Below, piece by piece: positions 14,082 to 47,310 of a stretch of DNA of 64,000 nt (the stretch's first letter is position 1; every line of letters starts with the position of its first letter). The stretch is from an uncultured Planctomycetales bacterium (GTDB taxonomy: Bacteria; Omnitrophota; Gorgyraeia; Zapsychrales; Fredricksoniimonadaceae): contig CAZACW010000003.1 of the NCBI GenBank assembly GCA_964483785.1, positions 20,559 through 84,558 on the forward strand. Reading direction: 5' to 3'. The position numbers and the translations under genes were made by a program. The notes under the pieces are model-generated. The model saw only the letters and a program-made list of their open reading frames with translations. It searched no databases and was not told the DNA's origin.

Positions 14082-15031
14082 TTCAGGGCAGATTTGGCGT
14101 GATAAGAAATGATGATGTCTGCGCCGGCGCGCTTCATCGCGGTCAGGGTTTCCAGGACAATTGATTTTTCATCGATCCATCCGTTTTGCGCGGCGGCCTT
14201 GACCATGCTGTACTCACCGCTGACATTGTAGCCTACGATGGGCACGGTCAATTCCCGGCGAAGTTGGGCGATGATGTCCAAATAAGCCAAGGCAGGTTTC
14301 ACCATGATCATGTCAGCGCCCTCGTTAACGTCTTTTTTGGCTTCTTTCAAGGCCTCGCGGCTGTTGGCAGGGTCCATTTGATAGGATTTGCGGTCGCCTG
14401 ATTTGGGTGTCGAATGGGCGGCATCGCGAAACGGGCCGTAATAAGCCGAAGCATATTTGACTGCATAGGATAAAATGCCCACGTCCTGAAATCGGGCCTG
14501 GTTTAAGGCCTGGCGGATGGCGCTAACGCGAAAATCCATCATGTCCGAAGGAGCGACCCAATCCGCGCCGGCCTGGGCCTGGGCCACGGCCATTTTGCCA
14601 AGCACAGGCAGGGTCTTGTCGTTGTCGATTTTTTCGTTAACGATCAGGCCGCAATGCCCATGGCTCATGTACGCGCACAGGCACACGTCTGTGACGATCA
14701 AAAAATCCGGAAAATGTTTTTTTAAGGCCTTGATGGCCGACAAAACAGGGTTGCCGGCGGCATAGGCGTATTGGCCGGTATTATCTTTGCGGGCCGGCAC
14801 GCCAAAGAGCATGCATCCTTTGCCGCCTTCCCGGATATAATCATCAATATCTTTAAGCAGATAATCCAGGGAAAAGCGGAATATGCCGGGCATGCTGGGG
14901 ATGGCTTCCTTTTTGTTTTTGCCCGCGACGACAAAATAAGGCTGGAGAAGATCATAGGCATTTAAGCGGGTCTCGCGGACAAATTCCCTGATTGCGGGCG
15001 TGGCCCTTAATCTACGATAACGATACGGCAT
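14069..15031 (-). CDS. hemB: Porphobilinogen synthase (delta-aminolevulinic acid dehydratase)
   Basis: 320 aa. Starts MPYRYRRLRATPAIREFVRETRL and carries an active-site lysine region typical of HemB. Overlaps the upstream fusion gene by 20 nt. Confidence 0.95.
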   Translation of the reverse strand: MPYRYRRLRATPAIREFVRETRLNAYDLLQPYFVVAGKNKKEAIPSMPGIFRFSLDYLLKDIDDYIREGGKGCMLFGVPARKDNTGQYAYAAGNPVLSAIKALKKHFPDFLIVTDVCLCAYMSHGHCGLIVNEKIDNDKTLPVLGKMAVAQAQAGADWVAPSDMMDFRVSAIRQALNQARFQDVGILSYAVKYASAYYGPFRDAAHSTPKSGDRKSYQMDPANSREALKEAKKDVNEGADMIMVKPALAYLDIIAQLRRELTVPIVGYNVSGEYSMVKAAAQNGWIDEKSIVLETLTAMKRAGADIIISYHAKSALKWIS

Positions 15032-17084
15032 CTTGATATCCTGAGGCTTGCAAGGTTTGTAAGGTCACCGGCCCCTTGGCCAGGATTTTCCAGGAATTCG
15101 GTATTATACCATAATCCGTCAGGAAATTCCGGACGGTCGAGGGGCTGGTAAAAATGACTCCGTCTATCTTGATCTCGGGCAAAGCGCGCTTGGCCGGCTT
15201 GGTATTTTCATAAATGGTGATTTCCGTGACCTCGGCCCCCTGGGCTTGTAAGGCTTCTTTCAAAAAAGGATTGGGCAGATTTGAGCGCGGCCATAAAATG
15301 GATTTTCCTTTAAGTGTCCATCGCAAAGACATGGCCTTGAACAGGCCTTGCGCGGTTTCTTCCGGAGAGACCAGATCAGCTTCAATGCCGGATTTTTCAA
15401 GCGCCATTTGGGTGCGGCGGCCGATCACTGCAAATTTTTTAGTTTTGAAATCCGTGTTTGGATCAAGGGCCCGTATGGCTTTGATAAAATATTCGCCCGC
15501 ACTCCAGCTGGTGCAGACAATGATCTCGGCCTGCTTAAAACTTTCTTGCAGTGCTTTTGTCTGGGCCTGATTCATGGCCGCAGGCGTGATTTCGATCATG
15601 GGCCAGGACACGATATTCCCCCAGGGTTGATAAGCCTGGGGATGTGTCCCGCAGTGAAGCAGGGTCGGCTTCATTGCAGGTTTATAAAAGTCAATGGTCC
15701 GGCCGGCAAGAATCAGCGCCGGCGGTTTAAGGCCAAGGGCTTTGGCTTCAATGCTCTCAAGGGTGCCTTTGACAATCTGCTCCTTGGCCTTGGTGCCGTT
15801 GGCGATGATCATCATCGGCGTATCCTTGCTCCATCCTGCCTTGCGCAAGGATTGGACGATGGTATTTAATTTGGTCAAGCCCATCAAAAAGACCAGGGTA
15901 TCTGCCTGGGGAAGATGGATGTCCTTGGGATGCTTTTGGTCTTCCTGTTCTTCATGGCCGCTGATAAAGGCCACCGAGGAAGAGATGCCTCTGGCTGTCA
16001 AGGGAATGCCTAAGGCCGAGGGAATGCCGGTGGCAGAACTGACACCGGGAATAATTTCAACTTCAATATGATAGGAGCGCAGATATTGGATCTCATCCGC
16101 TCCCCGGCCGAAAATCAGAGGGTCCCCGCCTTTTAAGCGCACCACATTTTTGCCGGCCATGGCCTTCATTTTAAGCATCCGCGAAAGTTCTTCCTGGGGC
16201 AGCGCCTGCTCACCCTTGCGTTTACCCGCGTAGATGGTTTCAGCTTGAGGCGCGAATTTGAGAAGTTCGGGATCAACCAGATAATCATAGAAAACACAAT
16301 CAGCCGTTTTTAGCGCGTCCACCCCTTTAAGGGTGATCAGGCGGCTGTCCCCTGGCCCGGCACCGACCAGGCTGACCTTGCCGTAATGCCGCCGCACATC
16401 AATGTCCTGAAATAAAACTTCCAAATGCAAATCTTTCCTGCGGCCCACCACAGCCAGCTGGCCTTGCAAAGGCATGGCTTCCCAAGGCAAAAAATCCTTG
16501 ATCCGATGCTCGAGTTTAAGGCGTTTGAGCGCGCAGGCAGCCATCACCAGGCCGTCCAGCTTGCCTTCATCTAATAAGAGCAGGCGTTCCTGGATGGTGC
16601 CGCGGATATGGACAATATCCGCATCGGGCCGCATATGCAGGACCTGATGCTGACGCAAGACGCTGCTGGTGCCGATTTTGGCCCCTGGTTTTAAATCCTG
16701 CCAGGCCATGCGGCTGACCCAGGCGTCCCTGCCATCCATGCCCTTGGTCAAGGCAAAAATTTTCAAGCCCTCCGGCATATTTTGCGGCAGGTCCTTGGCG
16801 CTGTGCACGGCCAGATCAGCCTTATTGCCAAGCAGGGCCTGGTCAATGGCGTCGGTAAAAAAATCATCGCGGCTTTCCGTCAAGGGCGTATGCTTGTCTT
16901 TGTCGCCGCTGGTTTCCATGGTGATCAGCTGAAAATCCAAGGCCCTGCCCTGGATTTTAAGCTCCTGGACAATTTCTTCGACCTGGGCCAAGGCCAAGGG
17001 GCTGAAACGGGAAGCGATTCTAATAGGTTGATTCATAGAGGATATTATACAACGTGAGTTCGACATATTGAGAAAGGCATGCAA
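15012..17084 (-). CDS. hemC/cobA/hemD: Trifunctional fusion of porphobilinogen deaminase (domains 1-2 only), uroporphyrinogen-III C-methyltransferase (CobA/SUMT) and uroporphyrinogen-III synthase (HemD). The likely true start is the Met of MNQPIRIASR near 17036.
   Basis: N-terminus IRIASRFSPLALAQ ... GTSSVLR ... LQGQLAVVGRRKD is HemC-like. Middle VSLVGAGPGD ... VRLKGGDPLIFGRGADE ... IPGVSSA is SUMT. C-terminus KKFAVIGRRT ... GVIFTSPSTV is HemD. The HemC part is about 210 aa and stops where the E. coli domain 3 (Cys242 cofactor loop) would begin. Confidence 0.85.
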   Translation of the reverse strand: MHAFLNMSNSRCIISSMNQPIRIASRFSPLALAQVEEIVQELKIQGRALDFQLITMETSGDKDKHTPLTESRDDFFTDAIDQALLGNKADLAVHSAKDLPQNMPEGLKIFALTKGMDGRDAWVSRMAWQDLKPGAKIGTSSVLRQHQVLHMRPDADIVHIRGTIQERLLLLDEGKLDGLVMAACALKRLKLEHRIKDFLPWEAMPLQGQLAVVGRRKDLHLEVLFQDIDVRRHYGKVSLVGAGPGDSRLITLKGVDALKTADCVFYDYLVDPELLKFAPQAETIYAGKRKGEQALPQEELSRMLKMKAMAGKNVVRLKGGDPLIFGRGADEIQYLRSYHIEVEIIPGVSSATGIPSALGIPLTARGISSSVAFISGHEEQEDQKHPKDIHLPQADTLVFLMGLTKLNTIVQSLRKAGWSKDTPMMIIANGTKAKEQIVKGTLESIEAKALGLKPPALILAGRTIDFYKPAMKPTLLHCGTHPQAYQPWGNIVSWPMIEITPAAMNQAQTKALQESFKQAEIIVCTSWSAGEYFIKAIRALDPNTDFKTKKFAVIGRRTQMALEKSGIEADLVSPEETAQGLFKAMSLRWTLKGKSILWPRSNLPNPFLKEALQAQGAEVTEITIYENTKPAKRALPEIKIDGVIFTSPSTVRNFLTDYGIIPNSWKILAKGPVTLQTLQASGYQDAVSLS

Positions 17085-18668: not shown

Positions 18669-18944
18669 ATGAATAAATTAACTTTTGGCTTAAGTTCGAT
18701 CATCGTGGCCCTGAGTTTTTGTTTGGGGACTGCCATCAACAGCCGGGCCCAGGACAAAAGCTTCTCAGGCGTTATACCCTTTGTGACCAGCAATGACCGG
18801 GTCGGGTTTTTAGACCAAAACAACGGCAAGGTCTATGTCTATGACAATAATCTGGGATCGTGCGTGTTCACCGGCCAGATCCAAACCCTGGGGGCACCGA
18901 TCCAAGTGATATCTTCACCTGCGGTAAACACCGTCAATCCATGA
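18669..18944 (+). CDS. Small secreted protein (signal peptide, cleavage around SRA-QD), hypothetical
   Basis: 91 aa with a strong SD (GAGGGAGG) 6 nt upstream. The stop TGA overlaps the ATG of the next gene (ATGA). One of only two plus-strand genes in the window. Confidence 0.5.
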   Translation: MNKLTFGLSSIIVALSFCLGTAINSRAQDKSFSGVIPFVTSNDRVGFLDQNNGKVYVYDNNLGSCVFTGQIQTLGAPIQVISSPAVNTVNP

Positions 18945-19168
18945 GCCGCAAACATCCCTTTACCATGCGGGTCAAGCCGGGCCGTTACGTTTGGTGCAGC
19001 TGCGTTGAATCCAAGCGACTGCCTTTTTGCGACGGGTCCCATGTCCGGACCGGCAGTACGCCGATGTTTGTCGAGATCACGCAAGAGCAGGAAGTTTCCT
19101 GGTGCGGCTGTAAGATGAGCGCCAAAAAACCGTTTTGCGACGGGACCCACGAACGCGCGGGATCATAG
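18941..19168 (+). CDS. CDGSH iron-sulfur domain protein (two CDGSH-type motifs)
   Basis: From ATG 18941 the sequence is MSRKHPF ... CSCVESKRLPFCDGSHV ... CGCKMSAKKPFCDGTHE. That gives two C-x-C-x(n)-CDG(S/T)H motifs, about 75 aa. It is translationally coupled to the upstream gene. Confidence 0.65.
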   Translation: MSRKHPFTMRVKPGRYVWCSCVESKRLPFCDGSHVRTGSTPMFVEITQEQEVSWCGCKMSAKKPFCDGTHERAGS

Positions 19169-20134
19169 CAGGCTGTGGGCGGTTGATGAGGCAATGTCTT
19201 TAAGGGCTTTAAGCAATTGCCGGCCGTGGGTGTTCAGGCGGCTGTGGGTGCTGCGGGTAGAAAGATTCATCACTCCTAAAATTTCTTTGTTGTTTCTGAT
19301 GATGGGCACAATCAGCGCACATTTTAATTCCGGCTTAATCATCAAATGACGGATGCGGTTATTTTGACCTTGGGCCTGGACCATCATCGGCTTTTTGCTT
19401 TGGGCCGCCAAACCTGCGATACCCTCCCCTAATTTGATGCCCACGCCCTGGGCCTTGCCCAGATTCATGCCCTTGACCATTTGAACATTCAGCTCATCCG
19501 TGCGTTTGTTAAACACCATCAGCGACCCGCATTCAGCCTGGGTCAAGGCCATGGACAATTCCAATAAATTTTTGAACACGGATAAGGACGCCGGGGATGG
19601 TTTGAAGGCAGTGACAGGCGCATCGGTTTCCTTGGACATGATCCTTAAGGCATACTGGGACAATTCCGCAAAAAGATCGAGCATGGATTTCAAGCCGTTA
19701 AAGGTCACGGCCCTGATCTCATTTAAAGAAGCCAGAAATTCCGCGGGATCAGCCCCAAGATCTTGGGCCATGGCCTTGTATTGGGCATGTTCCAAGGGTT
19801 TGTTGATGATCACCGGGCCTATAATCAAATAGGCCAAATGGTCCAGGCCGGCCGCGGCCATGGGAACAGCGAAATAATGCAGGCCAAGCTGGTCCGCGGC
19901 CTTTAAATAAGGGCCCTCTTTTTGGAATTGGGAAAGAAAACCGGATCCTCCAAGGCCCTGAAAAGCGCCCCAGCGCAAGGCCGCCTGTATGCCGTGGCCG
20001 CTGTTTTGCGGTGCTAAGATCGGCCTGCCTTCAGAGTCCGTCATCATGATATGGATGCGCAGCACATCCATAAAATTCACAAGGATCTGGCCTAATTGGG
20101 GACTGGCCTGGATTTTATCAATGATCATTTTCAT
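19163..20134 (-). CDS. GAF-domain protein (C-terminal GAF, N-terminal uncharacterised sensor-like domain). Last gene of the HK-RR-GAF operon.
   Basis: 323 aa. The C-terminal LGEGIAGLAAQSKKPMMV ... ILGVMNLS is GAF-like. Its start overlaps the end of the response-regulator gene by 17 nt. Confidence 0.55.
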   Translation of the reverse strand: MKMIIDKIQASPQLGQILVNFMDVLRIHIMMTDSEGRPILAPQNSGHGIQAALRWGAFQGLGGSGFLSQFQKEGPYLKAADQLGLHYFAVPMAAAGLDHLAYLIIGPVIINKPLEHAQYKAMAQDLGADPAEFLASLNEIRAVTFNGLKSMLDLFAELSQYALRIMSKETDAPVTAFKPSPASLSVFKNLLELSMALTQAECGSLMVFNKRTDELNVQMVKGMNLGKAQGVGIKLGEGIAGLAAQSKKPMMVQAQGQNNRIRHLMIKPELKCALIVPIIRNNKEILGVMNLSTRSTHSRLNTHGRQLLKALKDIASSTAHSLL

Positions 20135-21503
20135 CGGTCAGCGGTATCCCGTATTTTTTCATATTATTGTAAAGCGTGGTGCGGTTGATCCCCAGTTTTT
20201 GCGCGGTCTTGCTGCGGTTGCCATGGCAGTCTTTCAAGGCCTTAAGAATAATGTCCTTGGCCGGACCCTTTAATCCTTCCTGAAGTGATTTAGGCTCAGC
20301 CTTGATTTTGCTGTTGACGAAATTTTTAGGTAAATCTTCCTTGCCGATCATTTTCTTTTTGGCGATAATGGCCGCCCCTTCAATGACGTTTTCCAATTGG
20401 CGCACATTGCCGGGCCAGGCATGGGTCTCAAACAAGGCCTGGACTTCCTCATCAATGCCGGTGATGCTTTTATGGTTTTTGTGGTTGGAGGCTTCGATGA
20501 AATGCTTGACCAGCAGGGAAATATCTTCCCGGCGCTCCCTTAAAGGAGGCATGTGCAAAGGCAGGACATGGATGCGGTAATACAGGTCTTCCCGGAAAGA
20601 GCCTTCTTCAACGAGCTGTTCTAAGTCCTGATTGGAAGCCACGATGACCCGGGCATTGGTCTTTAACGTCTGGGTGTCCCCCACCCTTTCAAAACCGCCG
20701 TCCTGCAGAATGCGCAGCAATTTCACCTGCAGATTGGGCGAACAGGAATTGATTTCATCTAAGAAGATGGTGCCGTTTTGGGCCATTTCAAAGCGGCCTT
20801 TTTTGTCCTTGATGGCGCCGGTAAAGGCCCCTTTGACATGGCCGAACAATTCGCTCTCCAGCAAGGTCTCGGAGAGGGCGCCGCAGCTGACCTCCACAAA
20901 GGGCATGCGGCGGCGTTTGGAGTCATTGTCGTGCACAGCCCTGGCTGCCAGGCCCTTGCCCGTGCCGCTTTCTCCGGTGATCATGATGGTCGCGTTGGTA
21001 TCAGCGACGGATTCGATAAGGCTGTACACCGATTGGATGGCACTGCTGCGGCCGATCATGCCGAAAAAAGAGCCGGCCTTGGCCTTGGGGCCGTGCTGAC
21101 GCAGCTGCTGGCTTTCCTGCAGCAGGCGCTTCTTCTCGATGATTTTGGCCATCAGGTCCTTGACCTGGTCATCCACGATCGGCTTGGTGATGTAATCAAA
21201 GGCGCCCATTTTCATGGCTTCCACCGCCGAAGCGATGCTGCCGTAGCCGGTGATCAGGACCACCTCGGTCAAGGGCGAGGTCTTCTTAATGAAGGCCAAA
21301 AGGTCAAGCCCGCTTTTATCCGGCAATTTCATGTCCGTCATAACAATGTCAAAGGAGCGCTGGGCCGCAAGATGCGAAGCTTCCTGGACGCTGGAGGCCA
21401 TGGCCGCGTCAAAGCCCGCGATCTTCATGGTTTCATACAAGGACTTGCGGATCAAAGGCTCATCATCGACGATCAGGATGGAGTAGGGGTTTAGGCTCAT
21501 CAT
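20118..21503 (-). CDS. Sigma-54-dependent response regulator, NtrC family (REC + AAA+ sigma-54 activator + Fis-type HTH). PrsR-like by context.
   Basis: REC domain (ILIVDDE ... D ... K). Walker A GESGTGKG, GAFTGA sigma-54 contact motif, ESELFGH, and a C-terminal HTH RSKTAQKLGINRTTLYNNMKKYGI. Confidence 0.9.
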   Translation of the reverse strand: MMSLNPYSILIVDDEPLIRKSLYETMKIAGFDAAMASSVQEASHLAAQRSFDIVMTDMKLPDKSGLDLLAFIKKTSPLTEVVLITGYGSIASAVEAMKMGAFDYITKPIVDDQVKDLMAKIIEKKRLLQESQQLRQHGPKAKAGSFFGMIGRSSAIQSVYSLIESVADTNATIMITGESGTGKGLAARAVHDNDSKRRRMPFVEVSCGALSETLLESELFGHVKGAFTGAIKDKKGRFEMAQNGTIFLDEINSCSPNLQVKLLRILQDGGFERVGDTQTLKTNARVIVASNQDLEQLVEEGSFREDLYYRIHVLPLHMPPLRERREDISLLVKHFIEASNHKNHKSITGIDEEVQALFETHAWPGNVRQLENVIEGAAIIAKKKMIGKEDLPKNFVNSKIKAEPKSLQEGLKGPAKDIILKALKDCHGNRSKTAQKLGINRTTLYNNMKKYGIPLTDENDH

Positions 21504-22756
21504 GGGGCCTCGGCCAGGGGCAGTTTGATGCTGAAGGTCGTCCCTTCCTTCAAACGGCTTTTGACCTTGATTTTTCCATTATACAATTTGACGATTTCAT
21601 TGACCACGGTCAAGCCTAAGCCGCAGCCTTTGTCAATGTCCTTGGTGGTAAAAAACGGCTCGAAAATTTTGTCTAAATCAGCGGCCGTGATGCCGTGCCC
21701 GGTATCGGTGATGGCAATTTTGATAAACCCGTCTTCCGTCAGGGTGCGGATTTCGATGCAGCCGTTTTTGTCAATGGCATCAATGGCGTTTTTGATCAAA
21801 TTGCTGAAAACGCGCTCCAGGCCCCAGTCCGTTATTTCAGGGACATTGTGCGCGAAATGCTTGACGAGCTTGATGTTTTTGGCGGCCAGGTACGGATAAA
21901 GTTCCTTAAGGGCACCCTCGATGGTTTTATGGATATCGGCCTTGCGGGCGCTTTCAGGGGATTGGCGCGCGCAGGCCAGCAGGTTTTTGACGATATTGGC
22001 CATGCGTTTAAGGCCCATCTGCACCTCGGTCAAGTATTCTTTTAAGACCTCATCGTTTTGAGCGTGAGACATGCACAGATGATTGTAGCGCATCACCCCG
22101 TCTAAAGGATTGTTGAATTCATGGGCGATCCCTCCTGCCAATTTGCCGAGGGAGACCAGCCGCTCCTGCGATTCGATCTGCTTTTTCAATCCGCTGGTCT
22201 CCTCGCGGGCATGGCCCAATTGATGGGCCATCACGATGCGCTGATAATTAAGCGCAATTTGGTTCGACAAAAAATCCAACAGCTGGTGTTCCCGGTGGGT
22301 AAATGGTTTGGGAGGATTTTTGGCGTAAATGTGCACACTGCCCGTCAGCTTGTCCTTGATCATCAAGGGCGAAGCTATCGCGGTTTTGCTTCTATAGCCT
22401 TTGCCCGGGCCTAAGGTTTTAAGCAATTCCTCTTGATCGTTGTCTTTAAGGCCCACCGAGGCCTTAAGAAGCATCTGGTGGGTCTGGGGATCCAGCAGAA
22501 AAATGGCCCCGCGCCGGGCCTTGAAGACCGGCAAGGTGCTTTGTAAGGCGTCTTTGAAAAGATGCTGGGTGTCGATGGATTCTGAACACAGCACACAGAC
22601 CGCATTGATTTTTTCAAGAAGATTCGACAGCGGAGACGGCGCTTTGTGCTTTTTGAGGGGCATAATCCTGGCTGAGGCAGTCAATGTGTCTATCATATTA
22701 TCGTCAAATGAAAGGATCGTCAAACATCGAATGCATAAAAAAAGCAGACCTTTCAC
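21500..22756 (-). CDS. Cytoplasmic sensor histidine kinase with GAF domain (HisKA + HATPase_c). The GTG start at 22756 is doubtful. ATG at 22696 is more likely.
   Basis: H-box LAGGIAHEFNNPL. N-box and G-boxes NLIKNAIDA ... DTGHGI ... GLGLTVV. No TM segments. Overlaps the RR gene by 4 nt. Confidence 0.85.
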   Translation of the reverse strand: MKGLLFLCIRCLTILSFDDNMIDTLTASARIMPLKKHKAPSPLSNLLEKINAVCVLCSESIDTQHLFKDALQSTLPVFKARRGAIFLLDPQTHQMLLKASVGLKDNDQEELLKTLGPGKGYRSKTAIASPLMIKDKLTGSVHIYAKNPPKPFTHREHQLLDFLSNQIALNYQRIVMAHQLGHAREETSGLKKQIESQERLVSLGKLAGGIAHEFNNPLDGVMRYNHLCMSHAQNDEVLKEYLTEVQMGLKRMANIVKNLLACARQSPESARKADIHKTIEGALKELYPYLAAKNIKLVKHFAHNVPEITDWGLERVFSNLIKNAIDAIDKNGCIEIRTLTEDGFIKIAITDTGHGITAADLDKIFEPFFTTKDIDKGCGLGLTVVNEIVKLYNGKIKVKSRLKEGTTFSIKLPLAEAP

Positions 22757-22768
22757 AAGGACTGCTTT
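22737..22768 (-). terminator. Putative intrinsic terminator or attenuator between the sugar-transferase gene and the histidine-kinase gene
   Basis: Minus-strand RNA is AAAGCAG(U)CC-UUGUGAAA-GG(U)CUGCUUU followed by UUUUUUU. It ends at the GTG/ATG region of the kinase ORF. Confidence 0.35.
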
Positions 22769-22819: not shown

Positions 22820-23623
22820 TCACCGGGCGCCGAAGCCGGTCAAAATGACCCGGAATGTGCGCAAGATGATCCTGATATCGGTCAGGAAGCTGATGTTCTT
22901 GATGTAGAGGATATCGTATTTGACTTTTTTGCGCACATCCGCGATGGTCTCATCGTAGCGGTGGTGCACTTGGGCCAGGCCGGTGATGCCGGGTTTGACT
23001 CTCAGGCGTTTTTTGTAATCACCGATTTGGCCTTCCAATTGCTTGACAAATACCGGGCGCTCAGGCCTGGGGCCGATAACGCTCATCTCCCCTTTTAACA
23101 CATTGATAAATTGAGGGATCTCATCCAGACGGCTTTTGCGCAAAAATTGGCCGATGGGTGTGATTCTTTTGTCCTTGGCCTTGGCCCAAACAGGCCCTGA
23201 ATCTTTTTCCGCATCGATATTCATGGTGCGGAATTTATAGATTTCAAAATTTTTGCCGTCCTTGCCGGAGCGGATCTGGCTGTAAAAAATCGGACCTTTG
23301 GAGCTGAGCTTAATCAAAGCCGCAACCAACAGGCAGATAGGAGATAAAAGCACCAGACAAACGCAGGAAATGAGGATATCCATGATTCTTTTGGAGACAT
23401 GATAGGCCCTTCTTAAAAAAGCCACGATCATGGTCAAGACGCCGCTGCCGAAAAGCAGAAAGCTGGAAGGTTCAGGGGCCCGGGAATGGGGCTGGGCGAG
23501 CAAGGCATTGGCCTTATGCACGGCAACCGTGGCGGCCCAGGCATGGGCGTCCATGCCAAGCACAGCGATTAAGGCTGCTCCGAAACAAATAAAAGCCATG
23601 GTTTTAGAGGTCGATTTCATCAT
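22820..23623 (-). CDS. PglC/WbaP-C-terminal-like polyprenyl-phosphate sugar phosphotransferase with an about 80-aa N-terminal extension containing a signal-peptide-like helix and a PEP-CTERM-like motif
   Basis: Core KRIMDILISCVCLVLLSPICLLVAALIKLSSKGPIFYSQIRSGKDGKNFEIYKFRTM ... GPRPER ... PGITGLAQV are small sugar-transferase signatures. The extension reads MMKSTSKTMAFICFGAALIAVLGMDAHAWA-ATVAV ... RAPEPSSFLLFGSGVLTMIVAFLRRAYH, that is PEP, a hydrophobic stretch, then RR. No in-frame stop between the extension and the core. Confidence 0.8.
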   Translation of the reverse strand: MMKSTSKTMAFICFGAALIAVLGMDAHAWAATVAVHKANALLAQPHSRAPEPSSFLLFGSGVLTMIVAFLRRAYHVSKRIMDILISCVCLVLLSPICLLVAALIKLSSKGPIFYSQIRSGKDGKNFEIYKFRTMNIDAEKDSGPVWAKAKDKRITPIGQFLRKSRLDEIPQFINVLKGEMSVIGPRPERPVFVKQLEGQIGDYKKRLRVKPGITGLAQVHHRYDETIADVRKKVKYDILYIKNISFLTDIRIILRTFRVILTGFGAR

Positions 23624-23671
23624 TTTTGCTGTTTTTAGAGATTAAAAATTTGGCTTACATTAGGGTATAGC

Positions 23672-23688
23672 AGCAATTACCGTGCCAA
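23672..23688 (-). promoter_or_regulatory. Sigma-54 (-24/-12) promoter TTGGCACGGTAATTGCT upstream of the PEP-CTERM/sugar-transferase gene
   Basis: On the minus strand: TGGCAC-GGTAA-TTGCT. This is an exact match to TGGCAC-N5-TTGCW with correct 5-nt spacing. It lies about 50 nt upstream of the start codon at 23623, inside an AT-rich 240-nt gap. Confidence 0.65.
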
Positions 23689-23862
23689 ACCGCTAAAATC
23701 GCGCAAAATATTTAAATTTTTATAACTTGATTATTTCCAGTATGATAGAGAATAAATATAAAAATAAGATTAAAATCCCATAAAAAATACGTTCAAATAA
23801 GCAAAATAGAGGTATTTAAATGTATAAGTTTTTCAACACCCTATGTCTGATTTGACTTTATA

Positions 23863-24495
23863 TTAAGGTAGGTATTGCGATAATTTTGGACCTAACATGC
23901 TGGCAAATGCATCGATACGTTTTGAGGCCTCATTTTGACGCCCATCAATAATGTCAGCAGAAATCCTAATTAGAGCAGTACCTGTTCTCTTACCGGTCAA
24001 GGTATTATAGGCTGATAAGGTCTGCTGTTTCCAATAGCTGTGGGTGTACAAATTACCCACCTTAAACCAATAATAGACAATTTGCTGGTTTTGGTCATTA
24101 TCCAGCAAAAGCCAGTTGACCTTGATCTTGGGCCGAGAAGGGTTAATTATAATAGTATTCTTGCCCTTGTCAAGGATAGAAAATCCTGAATCCTTGTAAA
24201 AAATATCCGGCGGATTGGCGGCTTTGGGATTGCTTTGGGAATAGGCAATATATAAATAAATCCGCCCATGTCTGGCAGAATCATAACGCCTCAGAAAGGC
24301 GTTCTTGGTTTCCAAAATAGACACGTCCACCCTGCCCAAAGGCAGTTCCTGCGCAGTCCAGGGGCCGATGGTGGCGGGGAATTTTTCAACGCTGATGGAG
24401 TCCGGGTGATTAAAAGAAGTGGAATAATATTCCCATGAAATGAACATGGTGAAGATGGCCAGGGTCAGAATAAAAAAATAGTAGCGTGAGGGCAT
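23863..24495 (-). CDS. EpsI-family exosortase-associated protein
   Basis: 210 aa, N-terminal TM, IGPWTAQELP motif, periplasmic domain. It sits immediately downstream of the exosortase gene. Confidence 0.55.
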   Translation of the reverse strand: MPSRYYFFILTLAIFTMFISWEYYSTSFNHPDSISVEKFPATIGPWTAQELPLGRVDVSILETKNAFLRRYDSARHGRIYLYIAYSQSNPKAANPPDIFYKDSGFSILDKGKNTIIINPSRPKIKVNWLLLDNDQNQQIVYYWFKVGNLYTHSYWKQQTLSAYNTLTGKRTGTALIRISADIIDGRQNEASKRIDAFASMLGPKLSQYLP

Positions 24496-24496: not shown

Positions 24497-25375
24497 TTAG
24501 GTCAATAGTTTTTTAACGGTAAAAAGCATCAAAAAAGCAAAAATAAAGACCATGTACCCTGATAATCCATGGAGAAAGCCCTGGGTGTATTGCGTTCCCC
24601 AGATCTCCCCTACCGCAGCCAAGAACACGATGCGCAGGGCATTGGTGACCACGGCAATGGGGATGGCCGAGGCAAAAAGCAGGATTTTTTTCGACAATCT
24701 CAATTTCAAGCGGTAGGCAAAGATACTGCCTAAGGCAGCCAGGGAGATCAGGGACCTTAAGCCGCCGCAGGAATCCTCCACTTCCACGTAACTATGGGAC
24801 ATCATGATCAAACTGCTCTGCTGCAGCGCGGGAAGGCCCATGAGATTGAGGACCAAGGTGGCCAGGTGCGCGGCGATGATTTTCAATTTAAAACACACAA
24901 AAGCGACCAGGATGATGGGCATGGGCACCATGAAGGCCAGAAACAATACCGGAAAACGGATTTCCTTGAGCGTCCTTTCCCCGTAAAAATACAGGATAAG
25001 GCCAGCGAGGATGATGATCATGGCGAAACCTGAGGTGAAATACACATGCAGAATGGCGCTGGCCCAATAGAGGATGACGCCTGCGCTAAATAGTTCAAAT
25101 CCCCAATGGGAGGGTTTAACCGGGATTTTTTTAAGGACAGCCCTTTTTTTCCAAATCAAAAATGCGGAGATGACGGGGATGAGAATGCCGTGGCTGTAAT
25201 AGGAATTGTCCGCGAACCAGCGGTCCCACATCCACAGCATGGTCGGGAAAAACGCGGCCAGCAAAAAGACAAATACCAGCAATTCCCGTTGATGGTCCCT
25301 GATCAGGGCCTTGGTCTGGAGCATATCATGGGTGCCGCGCCTTTGTCCAGGCGGCCTGCTGTTGGGCCGTGACAA
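24497..25375 (-). CDS. Exosortase (EpsH/Xrt family transpeptidase)
   Basis: 292 aa polytopic membrane protein. Conserved Cys in VEDSCGGLRSLISLAALG and Asn/Arg in VVTNALRIVFLA match the exosortase catalytic signature. Genomic context is EpsI, GT2, deacetylase. Confidence 0.75.
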   Translation of the reverse strand: MSRPNSRPPGQRRGTHDMLQTKALIRDHQRELLVFVFLLAAFFPTMLWMWDRWFADNSYYSHGILIPVISAFLIWKKRAVLKKIPVKPSHWGFELFSAGVILYWASAILHVYFTSGFAMIIILAGLILYFYGERTLKEIRFPVLFLAFMVPMPIILVAFVCFKLKIIAAHLATLVLNLMGLPALQQSSLIMMSHSYVEVEDSCGGLRSLISLAALGSIFAYRLKLRLSKKILLFASAIPIAVVTNALRIVFLAAVGEIWGTQYTQGFLHGLSGYMVFIFAFLMLFTVKKLLT

Positions 25376-26477
25376 AACGCCAAAAGCCGGCCAGCGCTGA
25401 GAAATTCAAAAGACAGAACACATACGGCACGTAGCAAACTTTGGAGATGTATTTCAAAAGGCCCTGGCGGCCCTCCCGCGTCAGATGCCCGATGAGGGCC
25501 GCCAGATAAAAGGCGGATTGAAGGACAAAGAAAAATCGGAAAACAGCATCATAAATTAGCACAAGATTGATCAAAAATAAAGCGATAAGGCAAAACGGGA
25601 CCATGACTCTCAGGAATTTATGGGAGATCAAGGGCCAGGCAATGGGGCTTTTCAAGGGGATGAACATGTCCGGAAAAAGGAAAAAAATCTGGTAATTGCC
25701 AAACAGGGTCCTGGTCTTGCGGCGGTATTCTTCCTTGGGGGAAGCTGCTACCTCATCAAAGGCCAGGGCACTGCCGTCGAAGACGGCCCGAAAACCCTGG
25801 CGGATGATGGCCAAGGGAATGTACATATCATCCAGGACAATGTCCAAAGGCCCGGGGACAAACAGATTTTTACGGATGGCGTAAATGGCGCCGGTCGAAC
25901 CCAGCATGGAATGCAGGGCGCTTTCCTGGCGGCGGATGAATTTTTCATAGGTCCAATACAGGCTGACCCCCTGGGCCGTGCTCCCTTGCTTGGGCGCGAA
26001 GACCAATTCCCCGCTGACACAGCCGATCTTGGGGTCGGCGAAATTGGCGGTCAATTGCTTCAGCGCGCCGGGGTCGATGTTTTGCCTGGCATCATTGAAA
26101 AAGATGATCTCATGGCCGGCATGCTCCACCAGGCTGTTGAGGGTGGCCATTTTTCCCTGGCGCTTTGGATTGACAAAGAGTTTGACCCGCGGGCTTAAAT
26201 AAGGGCGGATGATCTCATGGGTCAGGTCGCTGGAGCCGTCGGAGCCGATCAAAATTTCCAATTTGTTTTCGGGGTAATCGAGTTTAAGGAGATTTTGGAT
26301 TTTGGGACCGATCACATCTTCTTCATTGTAGACCGAGATGAGCAGAGAAACCGTCGGCTCATAGGAGGATTTATGCACCGGGTTTTTCAAAAGCCTGGCC
26401 AGCGCAAAGACCAGGCAGGGATAAAGAAAATAACAATAAACGACGAGCGACAAAATCGTCCAGAAGAGGATGGTCAT
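25326..26477 (-). CDS. Family 2 glycosyltransferase with C-terminal TM helices (processive synthase-like)
   Basis: LISVYNEEDVIGPKIQNLLKLDYP ... ILIGSDGSSD ... DAR, plus multiple C-terminal hydrophobic helices. Confidence 0.75.
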   Translation of the reverse strand: MTILFWTILSLVVYCYFLYPCLVFALARLLKNPVHKSSYEPTVSLLISVYNEEDVIGPKIQNLLKLDYPENKLEILIGSDGSSDLTHEIIRPYLSPRVKLFVNPKRQGKMATLNSLVEHAGHEIIFFNDARQNIDPGALKQLTANFADPKIGCVSGELVFAPKQGSTAQGVSLYWTYEKFIRRQESALHSMLGSTGAIYAIRKNLFVPGPLDIVLDDMYIPLAIIRQGFRAVFDGSALAFDEVAASPKEEYRRKTRTLFGNYQIFFLFPDMFIPLKSPIAWPLISHKFLRVMVPFCLIALFLINLVLIYDAVFRFFFVLQSAFYLAALIGHLTREGRQGLLKYISKVCYVPYVFCLLNFSALAGFWRFVTAQQQAAWTKARHP

Positions 26478-27256
26478 TGGATGAGTTTAATGAAGAGGCT
26501 GCGCAGTCCATTGTATCCGTTTTCGCGCAGCAGGATTTTCAAGGTCCTTTTGACCGCGTCCCCCGTCCTTTCCAGGAAAGGGGTCTTGCCATGCATGGCC
26601 AGATCGAAACGGGCCAGGTTCCAATGGGACTTGACCGCGATGCGGCTGATGCATCCTGATTTAAGCCAGGCCTGGGGTTCAGAAATGAAAATGGTCTTAT
26701 ACCCCAGCCCATAGGCGGTCTCGATGATTTTTTCGTTGCAAAACCCCCTGGGGATGGACAGGGCATCAATGCTGATCCCCAAATTTTTTTCCAGGTTTTT
26801 TTTGGAGGCCCGCAATTCCTCCTCCATTTGGGAATCCAGCAAATTGGTGAGGATCTCATGGCTCAAGCCGTGGGAGCCGATCACCATGCCGGCCTCATGC
26901 AGTTCTTTGAGCTCCTTCCAGCCCATATAGCCGTCCCTGCCCACCCTTTTGATGATGATGAAAAAATAAGCCTTCCATCCCATGCTTTTTAAGACCGGCA
27001 GGGCCTGCTTGTGATTGTTCATTTCCCCGTCGTCAAAGGTGATGATCACGGGTTTGGGGCCCATCAGCGCTGCGGTGTTTTCATACAGCGTTGGTTCAAA
27101 TCCCTGCTCTTTGAGCCAGTTCATCTGGGTGACGAAATTATCCAGGGACACATCATACAGGTGCGCCCCTGTTTCGCGGTCATCCGGCAGACGGCCCGGC
27201 TCATTGGCACTGATGCCGTGGTACATCAGGGTGATGGGATTAAGTCCTTGAGGCAC
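26474..27256 (-). CDS. Polysaccharide deacetylase (NodB homology domain), exosortase-locus type
   Basis: IITFDDGEMNNHKQALPVLKSMGWKAYFF ... GSHGLSHE are NodB motifs 1-3. Confidence 0.8.
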   Translation of the reverse strand: MPQGLNPITLMYHGISANEPGRLPDDRETGAHLYDVSLDNFVTQMNWLKEQGFEPTLYENTAALMGPKPVIITFDDGEMNNHKQALPVLKSMGWKAYFFIIIKRVGRDGYMGWKELKELHEAGMVIGSHGLSHEILTNLLDSQMEEELRASKKNLEKNLGISIDALSIPRGFCNEKIIETAYGLGYKTIFISEPQAWLKSGCISRIAVKSHWNLARFDLAMHGKTPFLERTGDAVKRTLKILLRENGYNGLRSLFIKLIQ

Positions 27257-27275: not shown

Positions 27276-27809
27276 TTACGATTCCATTAAACTCATGCGC
27301 GCCACCACAATGCGGCCGCGCAAGGACCCCGACGCATCGGAGTATTTTTCCAGGTTGAGCGCATTGATAAAGTAAAAGTTGGGCGGGTCCTGCAAGGCGC
27401 GCAAAAACTGCACGATGTCCAGCCATTGCCCGTCGATTTCCAGCTCCACCGGGAAAAAACTGGCCTCTTTCTGGATGAAGGACCTTTGCGGCTGGATATT
27501 GGCGATATGGATATTGCTTTCCCTGGCCGCGGCCTCGATTTTGGAGATGATCGCAGGGGCCTGGGTCTCTTCTGACCCGGCCAGGCCGATGGCATCCGCC
27601 AGATTATGGTACCTGGTTTCGATCATGCCCCCCTGGCCCAAGACCTGGCGGCTCTTTAAAAGTCTGGCCTTGGTGACCCGCAGTTGATCGTCGATGTCCG
27701 CGGCCCCTTCCTTAACGGGCCTGATCACCCAGAGGTAAACAAGAAAAACAGCCGAAAGCCCCAGGGTGATGCTCAGGATGATGGTTTCGCGTTGGCTAAG
27801 CTTTTTCAT
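27276..27809 (-). CDS. gspM: T2SS protein M-like (GspM/PilO fold)
   Basis: 177 aa with a short N-terminal cytoplasmic segment, one TM and a periplasmic domain. Last gene of the gsp-ordered operon. Confidence 0.5.
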   Translation of the reverse strand: MKKLSQRETIILSITLGLSAVFLVYLWVIRPVKEGAADIDDQLRVTKARLLKSRQVLGQGGMIETRYHNLADAIGLAGSEETQAPAIISKIEAAARESNIHIANIQPQRSFIQKEASFFPVELEIDGQWLDIVQFLRALQDPPNFYFINALNLEKYSDASGSLRGRIVVARMSLMES

Positions 27810-29235
27810 GCGGTGCGCTCATGGGTTTAAAGGCGCAGGTGATCTTGAAATAATCCACTTCTCCCTGCTGGGTCACCCGTTTATTGACATAATCCAAATT
27901 CACATTGGAAAATTTTTGGTAATTGGCCAGGTCTTTTTGGAATTGGTTGACATCGACGGGGTTTGAGGCCACCCCTTGAAACGAGAGGCTGTTGTTTTCA
28001 TTCAGGGCCATGCTGACCAGATACACCTGGGCCGGCAGGACACGGTAAATTTCCAAGGCCAAATCAGAAAAGACCAGGCGGTTTTTGACCATCGATTCAA
28101 TATCATGGATTTTTTTCAGCCGCTCCTCCACCTTCTGGGCCGCTTCTTTGGTGGTGCGCAGCTGGTCCTTAAGCTTGGCCAGCTGGATATTTTTTTTGAC
28201 ATAGCCCATGCTTAAAGAGAGCCCCAGGGCGGCCAGGGCCGCGGCCAGCCAAAGGCCGCAGATGATCAGCTGGCGCTGATGCATCTTTTGTTCCTGGGAT
28301 TGCCGCACAGCTGTTGGGACCAAATTGATGGGCGGTGTTTGACTGCTTAAGGCAATGCCGGCCAGCGGCGCCAGGGACATGCCCTCTTGCGTGCATAAGG
28401 AGGGTATGCGCACATCACGGGCCAATTTTAAGAATTTTGTCAACAGCACATCCTGAATGTTTAAGGCATTTTGGGTTTTGGTCAGTTCCTGGCCAAGGGC
28501 AAAAGCCCCTTCCCAGCAGCTGATGATATACACCGTGTCCAAGGCCTGGGCCGCCTTTTCGCCGCCGATATTATGCTGGGTCAGTTCCCATTGTTTTAAT
28601 ATTTCCCCATAACCGTCCTGAGCGATCTGGGTGAGACCCGACGGCAATTCTCTCGATGCAGACCAGTGCGCGGGATGGCAGACGCAGATTTCGCTTTTGT
28701 CAAGGTCAAGGTCAAAGACCGCCGCAGGCTTGTCCCCTGTATTGGGCCATTGGGTGTAAAGGTTCCAGAGGCCGATGGAGGAGAGCGTGATGCTGTGCAC
28801 CCTGACCTTGGCCTCCGCGAAGATTTTCCAATAGCGCATGGCGGTTTCCTGCGGGATGATGACCACAGCCACCTTGGCGTATCCGTCGGGAGATTTGGCC
28901 AGGACTTGAAAATCCATCTGCACTTCTTCCAATTCATAGGGAATGCTGCTGCTAACCTGCAGTTCGATCATGGAACGGATCTCGCTGTCCTGATGGGAAG
29001 GCACGGACATCAAACGCAGGATCACCCGCGAGCGCGGGATCACCACGGTCACCCTGGCCTCGTTCAAATTTAATCTGCGCCTTTTAAGAAAGGTCCAGAG
29101 GCCCTGGCTGATTTGAGCTTCGCTCTGGCCTTTGATCAAAAGCACATCCAGGGCCGTAACGAGCTTGGAGCTTGTCAGGACCTGTAAAAATTTGATGCGT
29201 TCCTCGTCGATATAAAACACGGCGTTGGATTTCAT
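27796..29235 (-). CDS. gspL: T2SS protein L-like (cytoplasmic actin-like domain + TM + periplasmic PilN-like domain). The true start is MKSNAVFYIDEERIKF. The upstream 52 codons in the ORF track are an Arg-rich read-through.
   Basis: Architecture is cytoplasmic domain, TM (LIICGLWLAAALAALGLSL), periplasmic domain. Position between gspK-like and gspM-like genes. Confidence 0.5.
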   Translation of the reverse strand: MKSNAVFYIDEERIKFLQVLTSSKLVTALDVLLIKGQSEAQISQGLWTFLKRRRLNLNEARVTVVIPRSRVILRLMSVPSHQDSEIRSMIELQVSSSIPYELEEVQMDFQVLAKSPDGYAKVAVVIIPQETAMRYWKIFAEAKVRVHSITLSSIGLWNLYTQWPNTGDKPAAVFDLDLDKSEICVCHPAHWSASRELPSGLTQIAQDGYGEILKQWELTQHNIGGEKAAQALDTVYIISCWEGAFALGQELTKTQNALNIQDVLLTKFLKLARDVRIPSLCTQEGMSLAPLAGIALSSQTPPINLVPTAVRQSQEQKMHQRQLIICGLWLAAALAALGLSLSMGYVKKNIQLAKLKDQLRTTKEAAQKVEERLKKIHDIESMVKNRLVFSDLALEIYRVLPAQVYLVSMALNENNSLSFQGVASNPVDVNQFQKDLANYQKFSNVNLDYVNKRVTQQGEVDYFKITCAFKPMSAPHEKA

Positions 29236-29237
29236 CT

Positions 29238-30254
29238 TTAATCCCTTTGCCGGGACACCAGAACGGCCGGCGCGCCGGGCACGCGATGGATCACCGCTTC
29301 GATGATGGATCGCGCACCGCTGACAGCGTCGATGCCGATGACCCTGGCCCGGTAATAATTGGAGACCCCTTCCTGCAGGGCCGCGGGCCAATTGGGGTCA
29401 GCCACGCTGGCCAAGGACCCTGCCCCGTCGTCCAAGGTAAAAGACCGGCTGTCCGCGCCGTCGCGCAGGGCATAGGCTTGGCTGATCACCTCATCGGCGT
29501 TGACAGACGGATTAACGCGGGCCGCGGCATGGACAACGGCCTGGATCACGTCATTGTCGGCCGTGTCCACATTGACTCTAAGGCCGTTTTGGATGTCCCC
29601 ATAAACAGTCACATCGTCTTTTATTTTAGCAAAAATTTCCTTGGTCATGCCATTTACTTCCAATAATTCCAGGAGATTTTCATAGGGCCTGTTTTTGGTC
29701 TTCAACAGCGCATCATCCAGGTTTTTGAAAGACTGATTGTTGCTGGCCTGCGCGTTTAAGCCCGTGTAATTGACGATGGCCAGGGCCAGCCTGTCCCCTT
29801 CTGCCAATGAAAGGCCATAGACCTGCAGCAAGGCGCTGAGGACCTGGTAATTGGAAATCCCGATGGCATTGATATTGATGCGCCCCCCTTCATCCCTGAT
29901 GCCGTATTGCATCTGCCCGTCGTCCACACCGTTGAAATGCGCTGCCGGCCAGGCGATGATGGCGTAGTTACGGGGGCCGGTGTCGACATGGGAAAATAAT
30001 GTTTCAGGGCTTTGGGTGGCGCTGATCAGAATGCCGTCGGAATATAAACAGTCCTTGGCCGCGGGCGCTTTTTGCAGAAGATCCAGGACCTGATTGAGCC
30101 CGGAGCGCGCGGCTGCCAGGGAGCGCAGTTTTCCCCGGTAGGTGTCGACCAGGGACACTTCCAGCGCGGCGCGCCGGCCAAGGCCCCAGGCGATCAAGGC
30201 CAAAATGATCAGGACCCATAAGGCCACGATCAAGACAGCGCCTCTATTGTTCAT
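29238..30254 (-). CDS. gspK: Minor pseudopilin GspK-like (start at MNNRGAVLIVALWVLIIL, no Glu+5)
   Basis: Prepilin-like N-terminus lacking the conserved glutamate. About 338 aa. Position after gspJ-like. Confidence 0.5.
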   Translation of the reverse strand: MNNRGAVLIVALWVLIILALIAWGLGRRAALEVSLVDTYRGKLRSLAAARSGLNQVLDLLQKAPAAKDCLYSDGILISATQSPETLFSHVDTGPRNYAIIAWPAAHFNGVDDGQMQYGIRDEGGRININAIGISNYQVLSALLQVYGLSLAEGDRLALAIVNYTGLNAQASNNQSFKNLDDALLKTKNRPYENLLELLEVNGMTKEIFAKIKDDVTVYGDIQNGLRVNVDTADNDVIQAVVHAAARVNPSVNADEVISQAYALRDGADSRSFTLDDGAGSLASVADPNWPAALQEGVSNYYRARVIGIDAVSGARSIIEAVIHRVPGAPAVLVSRQRD

Positions 30255-30972
30255 TGTACAGGCCCTCCACCGGCGGCAAGTAAAAATCACGTTTAAACAC
30301 CGGGCCTCCTGCGCGGCTGGACGGATCAGACAGCACAAAGGCGCAGGACACGGCCAAAGGGAGCCCTTTTTCGTCCCAGCTTTCGGCAAAATTCAGCTCC
30401 TGCGCCCCGCCTGTATGCAGGTTTTTGGTAAAAGGCGCAAAGCGGCAGTTGAAGCTTCCTTTTTTTAAACCAGCGGCGATGATTTGGGTGGACGCATCAT
30501 GGTTCGTTTCATTAAGCCAGTCCGCCAAACTGCTTTCCTGCCTCAGCAAAAACTCATCCGGCGATGACCCTGAATTTGCGCTGCCGCCGTGATTGACCAC
30601 GCGGCCGATCATGGCATAGGCCAGGCCTCCTGGCGGCGGAAGGCCGGCATAATAACGGACATGTTTAAGGCCCGATGGGGTCTGGGTCATGAAGGAGAAT
30701 TCCTGCGCCTGGCCTTCAAAGACCGCGGCATCGGGATAGGAACCGGACAGATCGAGGCTGACCGCATTGTCCAGGTCGCGGGTCATGGCTTGATCCGCCA
30801 GCAGGATTTCCATCCAATGGTCATGGCTGTGCCTCAAGCGTTCATCGAGTTTCATGGAAGACCAAAAGAGATTGTAAACGCTGACGCCGATGATGGCGGC
30901 GATGGCCAGCCCCAGCAGAACTTCGACGAGGGTAAAGGCCCGGGGTGAATGTTGGAGTCGTTTAATTCTCAT
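30244..30972 (-). CDS. gspJ: Minor pseudopilin GspJ-like
   Basis: N-terminus RAFTLVEVLLGLAIAAII is a prepilin cleavage/methylation motif. 242 aa. Confidence 0.5.
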   Translation of the reverse strand: MRIKRLQHSPRAFTLVEVLLGLAIAAIIGVSVYNLFWSSMKLDERLRHSHDHWMEILLADQAMTRDLDNAVSLDLSGSYPDAAVFEGQAQEFSFMTQTPSGLKHVRYYAGLPPPGGLAYAMIGRVVNHGGSANSGSSPDEFLLRQESSLADWLNETNHDASTQIIAAGLKKGSFNCRFAPFTKNLHTGGAQELNFAESWDEKGLPLAVSCAFVLSDPSSRAGGPVFKRDFYLPPVEGLYNEQ

Positions 30973-32226: not shown

Positions 32227-32238
32227 ACAGCTCTCCCG

Positions 32239-33453: not shown

Positions 33454-33459
33454 AGGGCT

Positions 33460-35148: not shown

Positions 35149-35162
35149 AGGTTCACCGGTCT

Positions 35163-40693: not shown

Positions 40694-40727
40694 AACCCAC
40701 CTCGCCGTTGGGGCATTACATTAAATT

Positions 40728-40767: not shown

Positions 40768-40876
40768 AATGGTGAATATGGCAACTGGCTACCTGTCCGG
40801 GCTACGGCCCGGGGTAAGGCCCTATAGCTTTGTGCCCCACCCTTTCGGGTGGTTTACCTTTTACATATCTAAGCGA

Positions 40877-43129: not shown

Positions 43130-43141
43130 GATTTGGAGAAT

Positions 43142-47299: not shown

Positions 47300-47310
47300 A
47301 TTTCTTACAA

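Follow-up and report, generated by a model that had tools for sequence, protein, structure and literature searches.

Exosortase/PEP-CTERM systems are widespread in environmental bacteria. To our knowledge, their regulation is known only from the prediction of the proteobacterial PrsK/PrsR/PrsT system and from a few studies of floc formation. The locus described here lies in a stretch of 64,000 nucleotides (contig CAZACW010000003.1 of assembly GCA_964483785.1, positions 20,559 to 84,558; hereafter the window) from an uncultured member of the Omnitrophota, a phylum whose members are ultra-small, for the most part uncultured, and possibly dependent on hosts. Three genes encoding a soluble histidine kinase, an NtrC-family activator, and a protein with PocR and GAF domains are located directly downstream of the genes for an exosortase, EpsI, and a sugar transferase, as an initial annotation of the sequence had placed them. 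The interpretation favored here, with moderate confidence, is that the three proteins constitute an exosortase-linked, sigma-54-dependent three-component switch that is found almost only in Omnitrophota and controls the initiating step of exopolysaccharide synthesis. All genes of the region, from the deacetylase to the PocR-GAF protein, are encoded on the minus strand, and the features are given below in the order of transcription.

26474-27256, minus strand: polysaccharide deacetylase gene, the first of the region to be transcribed
25326-26477, minus strand: GT2 glycosyltransferase gene
24497-25375, minus strand: exosortase gene (Exosortase_EpsH, 1e-62; generic model TIGR02602, 8TM_EpsH, 171.9 bits against a cut-off of 105.6)
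23863-24495, minus strand: EpsI gene (TIGR02914, 98.7 bits against 42.8)
23624-23862: intergenic gap between the EpsI and sugar transferase genes, 239 nucleotides, 26% GC
23821-23838, minus strand: candidate enhancer TGTTGAAAAACTTATACA, TGT-N12-ACA, centered ~143 nucleotides upstream of the -24 element
23672-23687, minus strand: predicted sigma-54 promoter TGGCACGGTAATTGCT, -24 element TGGCAC and -12 element TTGCT, score 11/11
22820-23623, minus strand: sugar transferase gene, 267 amino acids (Bac_transf, 1e-69; TIGR03025, 312 bits against 295.6)
22737-22768, minus strand: intrinsic terminator (hairpin and U-tract) that ends the sugar transferase unit, -18 kcal/mol, z = -4.5
22695-22723, minus strand: sigma-70-like promoter TTGACG-17-TAATAT of the kinase-activator-PocR/GAF operon, from a consensus scan
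21500-22756, minus strand: longest open reading frame (ORF) of the kinase, 418 amino acids before correction of the start
21500-22663, minus strand: kinase gene as corrected, 387 amino acids; truncated GAF, HisKA, and HATPase_c
20118-21503, minus strand: NtrC-family activator gene, 461 amino acids; REC, AAA+, and Fis-type helix-turn-helix (HTH) domains
19163-20134, minus strand: PocR-GAF protein gene, 323 amino acids, without an output domain

The sigma-54 promoter predicted upstream of the sugar transferase gene ends 49 nucleotides before the ATG. Its sequence, TGGCACGGTAATTGCT, is the sole exact match to TGGCAC-N5-TTGCW on either strand of the 64 kb; no site with one mismatch is present and 31 sites have two, and the total of 32 sites with up to two mismatches is lower than the mean of 47.5 in shuffled sequences. 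When GG and GC are held fixed, all other candidates on both strands of the window reach at most 9/11 and lie within coding sequence, and they were rejected as promoters. The related loci, which are designated here by L numbers, display the same arrangement: those of 10-20 kb contain exactly one such site each, always in the gap between EpsI and the sugar transferase, and a site precedes the sugar transferase gene in essentially every related locus that has this gene. In L035-L037 and L039 the variant TGGCACGG-N3-[AC]TGCT is present at the same place, with TGGAAC as the -24 box of L039. A second sigma-54 site is found before another gene in L009, L030, and L031, and in L009 this gene encodes a PEP-CTERM protein. 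The score, the uniqueness in 64 kb, and the conservation in relatives all bear out the sigma-54 promoter that the initial annotation had proposed at the sugar transferase gene.

Upstream of the promoter lies a palindrome of the form TGT-N12-ACA that constitutes a candidate enhancer. The motif is present between -200 and -90 in 11 of the 14 sugar transferase promoters, compared with a mean of 0.40 over 2000 shuffles, none of which gave more than 4; in most related promoters it is found at -120 to -159, with the consensus TGTTGA-N6-TnAACA. The layout of a palindrome upstream of a sigma-54 site is as expected of an enhancer-dependent promoter. Five related loci (L013, L017, L019, L020, and L024) also harbor repeated GACAGTC or TGTCC-type motifs between the palindrome and the sigma-54 promoter, as in GGACAGTCCAAGACAAACCAGGACTGTCC of L024. 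The window is without these repeats, which may be the site of a second regulator.

The sugar transferase gene is predicted to be a separate, terminated single-gene unit. A hairpin and U-tract equivalent to those of the window are present in L002, L003, L005, and L008, where the stem sequences differ and the pairing is kept. The sigma-70-like promoter lies within codons 12-21 of the longest kinase ORF; in the five loci compared, the -35 sequence TTTGACG is invariant and the -10 sequence (TAATAT or TATTAT) is conserved. Because the conserved terminator and this promoter intervene, a single four-gene sigma-54 operon extending from the sugar transferase to the PocR-GAF gene was rejected as the main design, while some read-through from the sugar transferase into the kinase operon may occur. 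The kinase and activator genes overlap by 4 nucleotides and the activator and PocR-GAF genes by 17 nucleotides, and hence the three genes form one co-transcribed operon.

The kinase contains the C-terminal part of a GAF domain, a HisKA domain, and a HATPase_c domain as defined by Pfam, with the H-box GGIAHEFNNPL. The initial annotation had extended the gene to 22756, the beginning of the longest ORF. The first 31 codons of this frame, including the hydrophobic stretch GLLFLCIRCLTILSF, are not coding, since the homologous DNA is conserved in close relatives but broken by stop codons and since the segment holds the terminator and the sigma-70-like promoter. The ATG at codon 21 of the frame falls within the -10 box. 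The corrected start is the ATG at 22663, which is preceded by AGGA; the resulting protein of 387 residues is identical to the recorded protein P0041. No transmembrane segment was detected in the kinase, the activator, or the PocR-GAF protein by Kyte-Doolittle hydropathy averaged over 19 residues, and the maximum for the kinase is 1.01, compared with 2.75-2.89 for the exosortase and the sugar transferase. A transmembrane kinase was therefore rejected, the hydrophobic N-terminus of the 418-residue ORF being an artefact over terminator and promoter DNA, and the cytoplasmic location first assigned to the kinase holds.

The sensory part of the kinase is less secure. Relative to kinases of the family in which the GAF domain is complete, ~30 residues are missing from the middle of the domain; in the kinases of the nearest relatives the same position shows other, independent deletions, which range from 9 to more than 35 residues. 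These deletions indicate that the sensor domain of the kinase is eroding in this subclade, and the eroded GAF is thus a doubtful ligand sensor. The GAF input attributed to the kinase at the outset is accordingly present in part, with its sensory role in question.

The activator displays every feature of its family. The Pfam domains are Response_reg (89.9 bits), Sigma54_activat (221.6 bits, 6e-66), AAA_lid_14, and HTH_8 (46.7 bits), with GAFTGA at residue 225 and the Walker A motif GESGTGK at residue 177. The receiver pocket is intact, consisting of the DD pair, D57, T85, and K107, and the motifs LIVDDEP, TDMKLPD, TGYG, ITKP, GESGTGK, GAFTGA, and FLDEI are all present. The protein is a complete NtrC-family enhancer-binding response regulator, in agreement with the initial annotation, which had recognized a bona fide member of this family.

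The third protein of the operon had been described as a co-transcribed GAF protein. The co-transcription is upheld by the overlapping genes, and the description of the protein requires revision: Pfam detects PocR (PF10114; 54.8 bits against 23.9, 1e-14) followed by GAF_2 (35.0 against 28.6) or GAF (32.6 against 22.4), and hence it is not a plain GAF protein. An AlphaFold2 model (pLDDT 80, pTM 0.73) consists of two alpha/beta modules linked by a long helix. The best structural and sequence matches of the GAF half in the PDB are the cAMP-binding Lcd1 and PtsP-type GAF domains; a search by sequence for a solved structure of a PocR-domain relative returned only GAF matches. The GAF half also resembles structures of free methionine-R-sulfoxide reductase (fRMsr), among many other GAF domains, and JGI names some homologs as methionine-R-sulfoxide reductases, so that an enzyme rather than a signaling component might be considered. 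The family alignment has no invariant cysteine, which leaves the JGI label unsupported; together with the better matches to cAMP-binding and PtsP-type domains, the N-terminal PocR sensory domain, and the translational coupling of the gene to that of the activator, this renders an fRMsr enzyme hardly credible.

Outside Omnitrophota genomes, the PocR-GAF family is hardly found. A word-index protein search recovered 39 relatives, ~32 of which have the PocR and GAF architecture. The view that the family is very rare, which this number had suggested, was corrected by an exhaustive profile search that yielded 384 cluster representatives at E<=1e-30, most of them stand-alone proteins of 310-360 amino acids. 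In data with one genome per species, all 30 matches that reach into the PocR domain come from one group, whose metagenome-assembled genomes are labeled either Omnitrophota or 'uncultured Planctomycetales/Planctomycetia'. The latter are probably of the same lineage as the former. Judged by these relatives, the window most likely derives from an Omnitrophota genome.

Comparison of the related loci reveals a recurrent order: exosortase, EpsI, sigma-54 promoter, sugar transferase, in some cases PEP-CTERM genes and a TPR protein, and then kinase, activator, and PocR-GAF protein. This order is present in many Omnitrophota loci down to ~28% identity, with synteny kept from 75% to ~43% activator identity. 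In 26 of 30 genome loci the gene immediately preceding that of the PocR-GAF protein encodes an NtrC-type activator, and the activator gene in turn follows that of a GAF kinase in most loci for which sufficient sequence is available. The exosortase, EpsI, and/or the sugar transferase are found within 10 kb upstream in ~16 loci. The sugar transferase and the regulators are separated in more distant Omnitrophota by genes for canonical PEP-CTERM proteins and a TPR protein. On the other side, a block of DAO, hemC-cobA-hemD, hemB, and hemL genes follows the module in several close relatives; other downstream neighbors are a carbamoyltransferase (L002), an ABC transporter (L008), and rpoN (L009). Since the downstream neighbors vary, the linkage of the module is to the exosortase side.

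The kinase and the receiver vary between the loci. The kinase of L009, a distant relative in which rpoN adjoins the module, is a bare HisKA-HATPase_c protein of 252 amino acids without a sensor domain. In the clade comprising L034-L039, no kinase was detected beside the activator in L035, L036, L037, and L039, all of which have upstream sequence; the only kinase match in L038 is a weak fragment (28%), and L034 offers only ~2 kb of upstream sequence. The receivers of L034, L035, L037, L038, and L039 have lost the DD pair and K107 and carry a deletion after the D57 position, an example being the activator at 8373-9752 of L037. The clade has kept the PocR-GAF gene as well as the sigma-54 promoter before the sugar transferase. 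The series from an intact kinase and receiver, through an eroded kinase sensor, to a missing kinase and a pseudo-receiver suggests how control of an enhancer-binding protein may pass to a trans-acting sensor.

The product of the sigma-54 unit is a priming polyprenyl glycosylphosphotransferase consisting of a signal peptide, a linker, a PEP-type signal (residues 49-72), and a Bac_transf domain (residues 78-261). The PEP-type signal, PEPSSFLLFGSGVLTMIVAFLRR, comprises the PEP motif, a hydrophobic helix, and a basic cluster, and ends five residues before Bac_transf. It is thus not at the extreme C-terminus, as it occupies residues 49-72 of 267 with the catalytic domain after it. The PEP-CTERM model PF07589 scores 19.4 bits on the protein of the window against a threshold of 20.7; the homologs of L003, L013, L017, and L020 pass it (20.9-26.8) and others reach 18.9-19.9, and a precomputed annotation with both PF07589 and PF02397 is attached to ~22 of the top 120 homologs. 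In the predicted topology the PEP motif would face the periplasm and the catalytic domain would lie in the cytoplasm, which is the orientation of a genuine exosortase signal. A canonical C-terminal PEP-CTERM gene was not found in the window, where the sole match is an antisense ORF inside a large gene.

The architecture of signal peptide, linker, and PEP-type signal before a small Bac_transf domain is conserved across Omnitrophota, and existing annotations invariably name the fusion a plain glycosylphosphotransferase. In L036 and L037 the sugar transferase ORF begins directly with MPEPST. No report of a PEP signal fused to a priming transferase was found in the literature on PEP-CTERM and sugar transferases. 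The exosortase of the window, which passes the generic model, misses all subtype cut-offs, including those of XrtA (TIGR03109; 174.6 against 208) and XrtD (184.5 against 400), and belongs to no named subtype.

The remainder of the window contains other genes of interest. A small zf-CDGSH iron-sulfur protein gene (18860-19168, plus strand) converges on the PocR-GAF gene with a 6-nucleotide overlap at its end and is also a neighbor in L003, L005, and L007; a redox link of this protein to the module is conceivable. Farther downstream is a fused hemC-cobA-hemD gene (15012-17084, minus strand, 690 amino acids), which combines porphobilinogen deaminase, uroporphyrinogen-III methyltransferase, and uroporphyrinogen-III synthase; its neighbors are an L-2-hydroxyglutarate oxidase-like FAD enzyme on the upstream side and hemB and a hemL-like aminotransferase on the downstream side. 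A complete type II secretion-like set (27276-37237, minus strand) consisting of secretin, GspE, GspF, G/H/I/J/K pseudopilins, and PilM/N/O-like proteins is located between the exosortase cassette and three large secreted Big_7/Ig-repeat proteins of 1110, 688, and 1391 amino acids (37361-47317, minus strand). In all three Big_7 proteins the signal peptide is followed by a common N-terminal 'WYVRDGGG..C.G' module. No PEP-CTERM tail was found on the large Big_7 proteins of the window, and they are therefore probably cargo of type II secretion rather than substrates of the exosortase. At the left end, positions 1-11889 (minus strand) form a stop-free frame of at least 3963 codons that runs off the window and has no Pfam match at E<=0.01.

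In the mechanism proposed, the kinase-activator-PocR/GAF module would be made constitutively. The activator would bind the upstream palindrome and, when active, remodel sigma-54 RNA polymerase at the sugar transferase promoter, so that the priming phosphoglycosyl transferase is made only on demand. Two cytoplasmic inputs would converge on the activator, namely phosphorylation of D57 by the soluble kinase and the PocR-GAF protein. The latter, with two ligand-binding domains and no output domain, would bind a cytoplasmic small molecule and contact the activator directly, and it may act on the kinase as well; in the window the second input, phosphorylation by the kinase, would still be in place. 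The PocR-GAF protein is probably the principal and constant ligand sensor, acting on the activator by contact, because the kinase GAF is eroded in the subclade of the window, because the L009 kinase has no sensor domain, and because the L034-L039 clade keeps the PocR-GAF protein with no clear kinase and a degenerate receiver pocket. Control thus appears to come from the cell interior and not from the envelope, and the nature of the signal, whether a small molecule or redox, is a matter of inference. The cis architecture is unusually clean, consisting of an enhancer, a sigma-54 promoter, a single gene, a terminator, and a promoter for the regulators themselves.

Several points weigh against this interpretation. 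All functional claims for the module are inferred from sequence, and the organisms are uncultured; binding of the activator to TGT-N12-ACA is proposed from conservation alone. Domain and profile annotation of the 64-kb window did not detect rpoN, and no adjacent activator was seen at four of the PocR-GAF loci (L015, L025, L026, and L027). The PEP-CTERM genes that lie inside the locus in other Omnitrophota are absent from the window. The truncated GAF domain of the kinase may have kept its function, the activator may also control genes at other places in the genome, and the PocR-GAF protein could act on the kinase, as NreA does, instead of on the activator.

The last of these points amounts to an alternative in which the PocR-GAF protein would bind the soluble kinase and set a kinase/phosphatase switch, with phosphorylation as the only input to the activator. 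NreA, a stand-alone GAF nitrate receptor that controls the soluble kinase NreB in the NreABC system of Staphylococcus (PMC12423327), is a direct precedent. A trans-acting sensor for the kinase is plausible, given that the kinase GAF is eroded and that the L009 kinase has none, and the three genes are translationally coupled. Such action is possible in the clade of the window itself; the L034-L039 loci, in which the PocR-GAF gene still lies beside an activator with a degenerate pocket and no clear kinase, are hard to explain in this way, and as a general account it is rather unlikely, though it retains some weight. It is very improbable that the adjacency is coincidental, with the module regulating the FAD oxidoreductase and heme genes or distant loci and another activator serving the sigma-54 promoter. 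The recurrence of the DAO/hemC-cobA-hemD/hemB/hemL block after the module in several close relatives would fit this account, but the downstream neighbors differ in L002, L008, and L009 while the exosortase and sugar transferase side is kept, no sigma-54 promoter precedes the downstream genes, and the locus has only this enhancer-binding protein and only this sigma-54 site.

A different question is whether the kinase and activator are true, diverged orthologs of PrsK and PrsR of the XrtA/PEP-CTERM regulatory system. Their position relative to the sugar transferase is that of epsB2-prsK-prsR, related loci contain a TPR protein and PEP-CTERM genes, and the activator scores 377 bits over its full length on the PrsR model TIGR02915. 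This score is nevertheless below the curated cut-off of 502.6 and below those of the activator on AtoC (421.7) and NtrC (392.6). The kinase reaches 88 of the 300 bits required by the PrsK model TIGR02916, with only profile positions 416-679 matched; AtoS scores higher, the transmembrane sensor of PrsK is lacking, and even the relatives with an intact GAF, P0096 and P0150, match TIGR02916 in the catalytic core only (91 bits). No TPR gene that could correspond to PrsT (TIGR02917) is present between 19163 and 25375 of the window, and the TPR proteins of L020, L037, and L009 score at most 82 bits (27.5 and 82) against a cut-off of 312. With an exosortase that is also under the XrtA cut-off, orthology is improbable. 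Membership in PrsK/PrsR/PrsT was rejected, and since no protein reaches the curated scores, the module is an analog and not a member of that system. The PrsK/PrsR-like logic noted in the initial annotation finds strong support in the gene order that recurs in Omnitrophota, as logic and not as membership in the curated families.

Beyond the switch itself, a bolder reading joins two proposals, that the client of the exosortase is the priming transferase and that the PocR-GAF protein fully replaces phosphorylation as the input of the activator. The exosortase could cleave or dock the priming transferase and so physically couple polymer initiation to sorting, with the sigma-54 module making the transferase on demand. 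The conjunction is offered tentatively and is considered doubtful. A PEP signal on a priming glycosyltransferase may nonetheless link protein sorting and polysaccharide initiation mechanistically.

The closest known counterpart of the module is the proteobacterial system described by Haft et al. 2006 (PMC1569441), which consists of the transmembrane kinase PrsK, the NtrC-like activator PrsR, and the TPR lipoprotein PrsT. In that study, a two-part upstream element composed of an activator site and a sigma-54 site was identified before single-gene PEP-CTERM operons of Proteobacteria, and other regulators were predicted to exist outside this phylum. The two systems share a histidine kinase and an NtrC-type sigma-54 activator beside exosortase and exopolysaccharide genes, and a target that is a single-gene unit with a long intergenic region, an upstream activator site, a -24/-12 promoter, and, for the window putatively, a PEP-CTERM-type signal. 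With this signal on its product, the sigma-54 unit matches the single-gene PEP-CTERM operon of Haft et al., except that the product is a priming glycosyltransferase. The order of sugar transferase, kinase, and regulator is also that of the Aquincola locus epsB2-prsK-prsR, where the PEP-CTERM gene pepA is RpoN-dependent (PMC9850573), and the TPR protein of related Omnitrophota loci provides a partial likeness to PrsT. In contrast, the module of the window misses all curated hidden Markov model cut-offs and belongs to another phylum, with an exosortase that is not XrtA by score. PrsK is a multi-pass membrane sensor, whereas the kinase of the window is soluble with a truncated GAF; the PocR-GAF protein is an additional component; and the PEP signal is on the N-terminal side of a priming glycosyltransferase instead of at the C-terminus of a secreted protein. 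The locus would supply, for Omnitrophota, a regulator outside Proteobacteria of the kind predicted in 2006.

Other systems resemble individual parts of the module. NreABC, also encoded by three genes, likewise pairs a soluble kinase with a GAF-containing protein that has no output domain and senses its ligand in trans. However, NreC is not a sigma-54 activator and NreA has no PocR domain, so that the likeness is architectural, without a sequence relationship shown, and in the present case the evidence favors the activator as the partner no less than the kinase. NifL-NifA and other partner-controlled enhancer-binding proteins would share with the module a sensory protein that is encoded next to the activator and acts on it by protein-protein contact, and partner control of this type could explain the kinase-less clade with its pseudo-receiver. 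The components differ, as NifL is PAS/kinase-like and NifA has its own GAF in cis, while the GAF of the window acts in trans and is joined to PocR. The AtoS/AtoC and ZraS/ZraR pairs are closest by alignment, both for the kinase core, whose best NCBIfam match is AtoS (185 bits), and for the full-length activator (AtoC, 422 bits); the equivalog cut-offs of 646 and 714 are far from reached, and sensors, context, and targets differ.

No description of the module was found in the literature on Omnitrophota exosortases and sigma-54 or on PocR-GAF proteins with sigma-54. On the evidence of sequence comparison, it appears to be a lineage-specific variant of known regulatory logic and not a new principle. 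Two elements are more novel, namely the PEP-tagged priming transferase and a possible phosphorylation-independent control of the activator by a trans-acting PocR-GAF protein. If such control is real, an activator governed in this way would represent a previously undescribed kind of partner-controlled sigma-54 activator, next to those exemplified by NifL-NifA.

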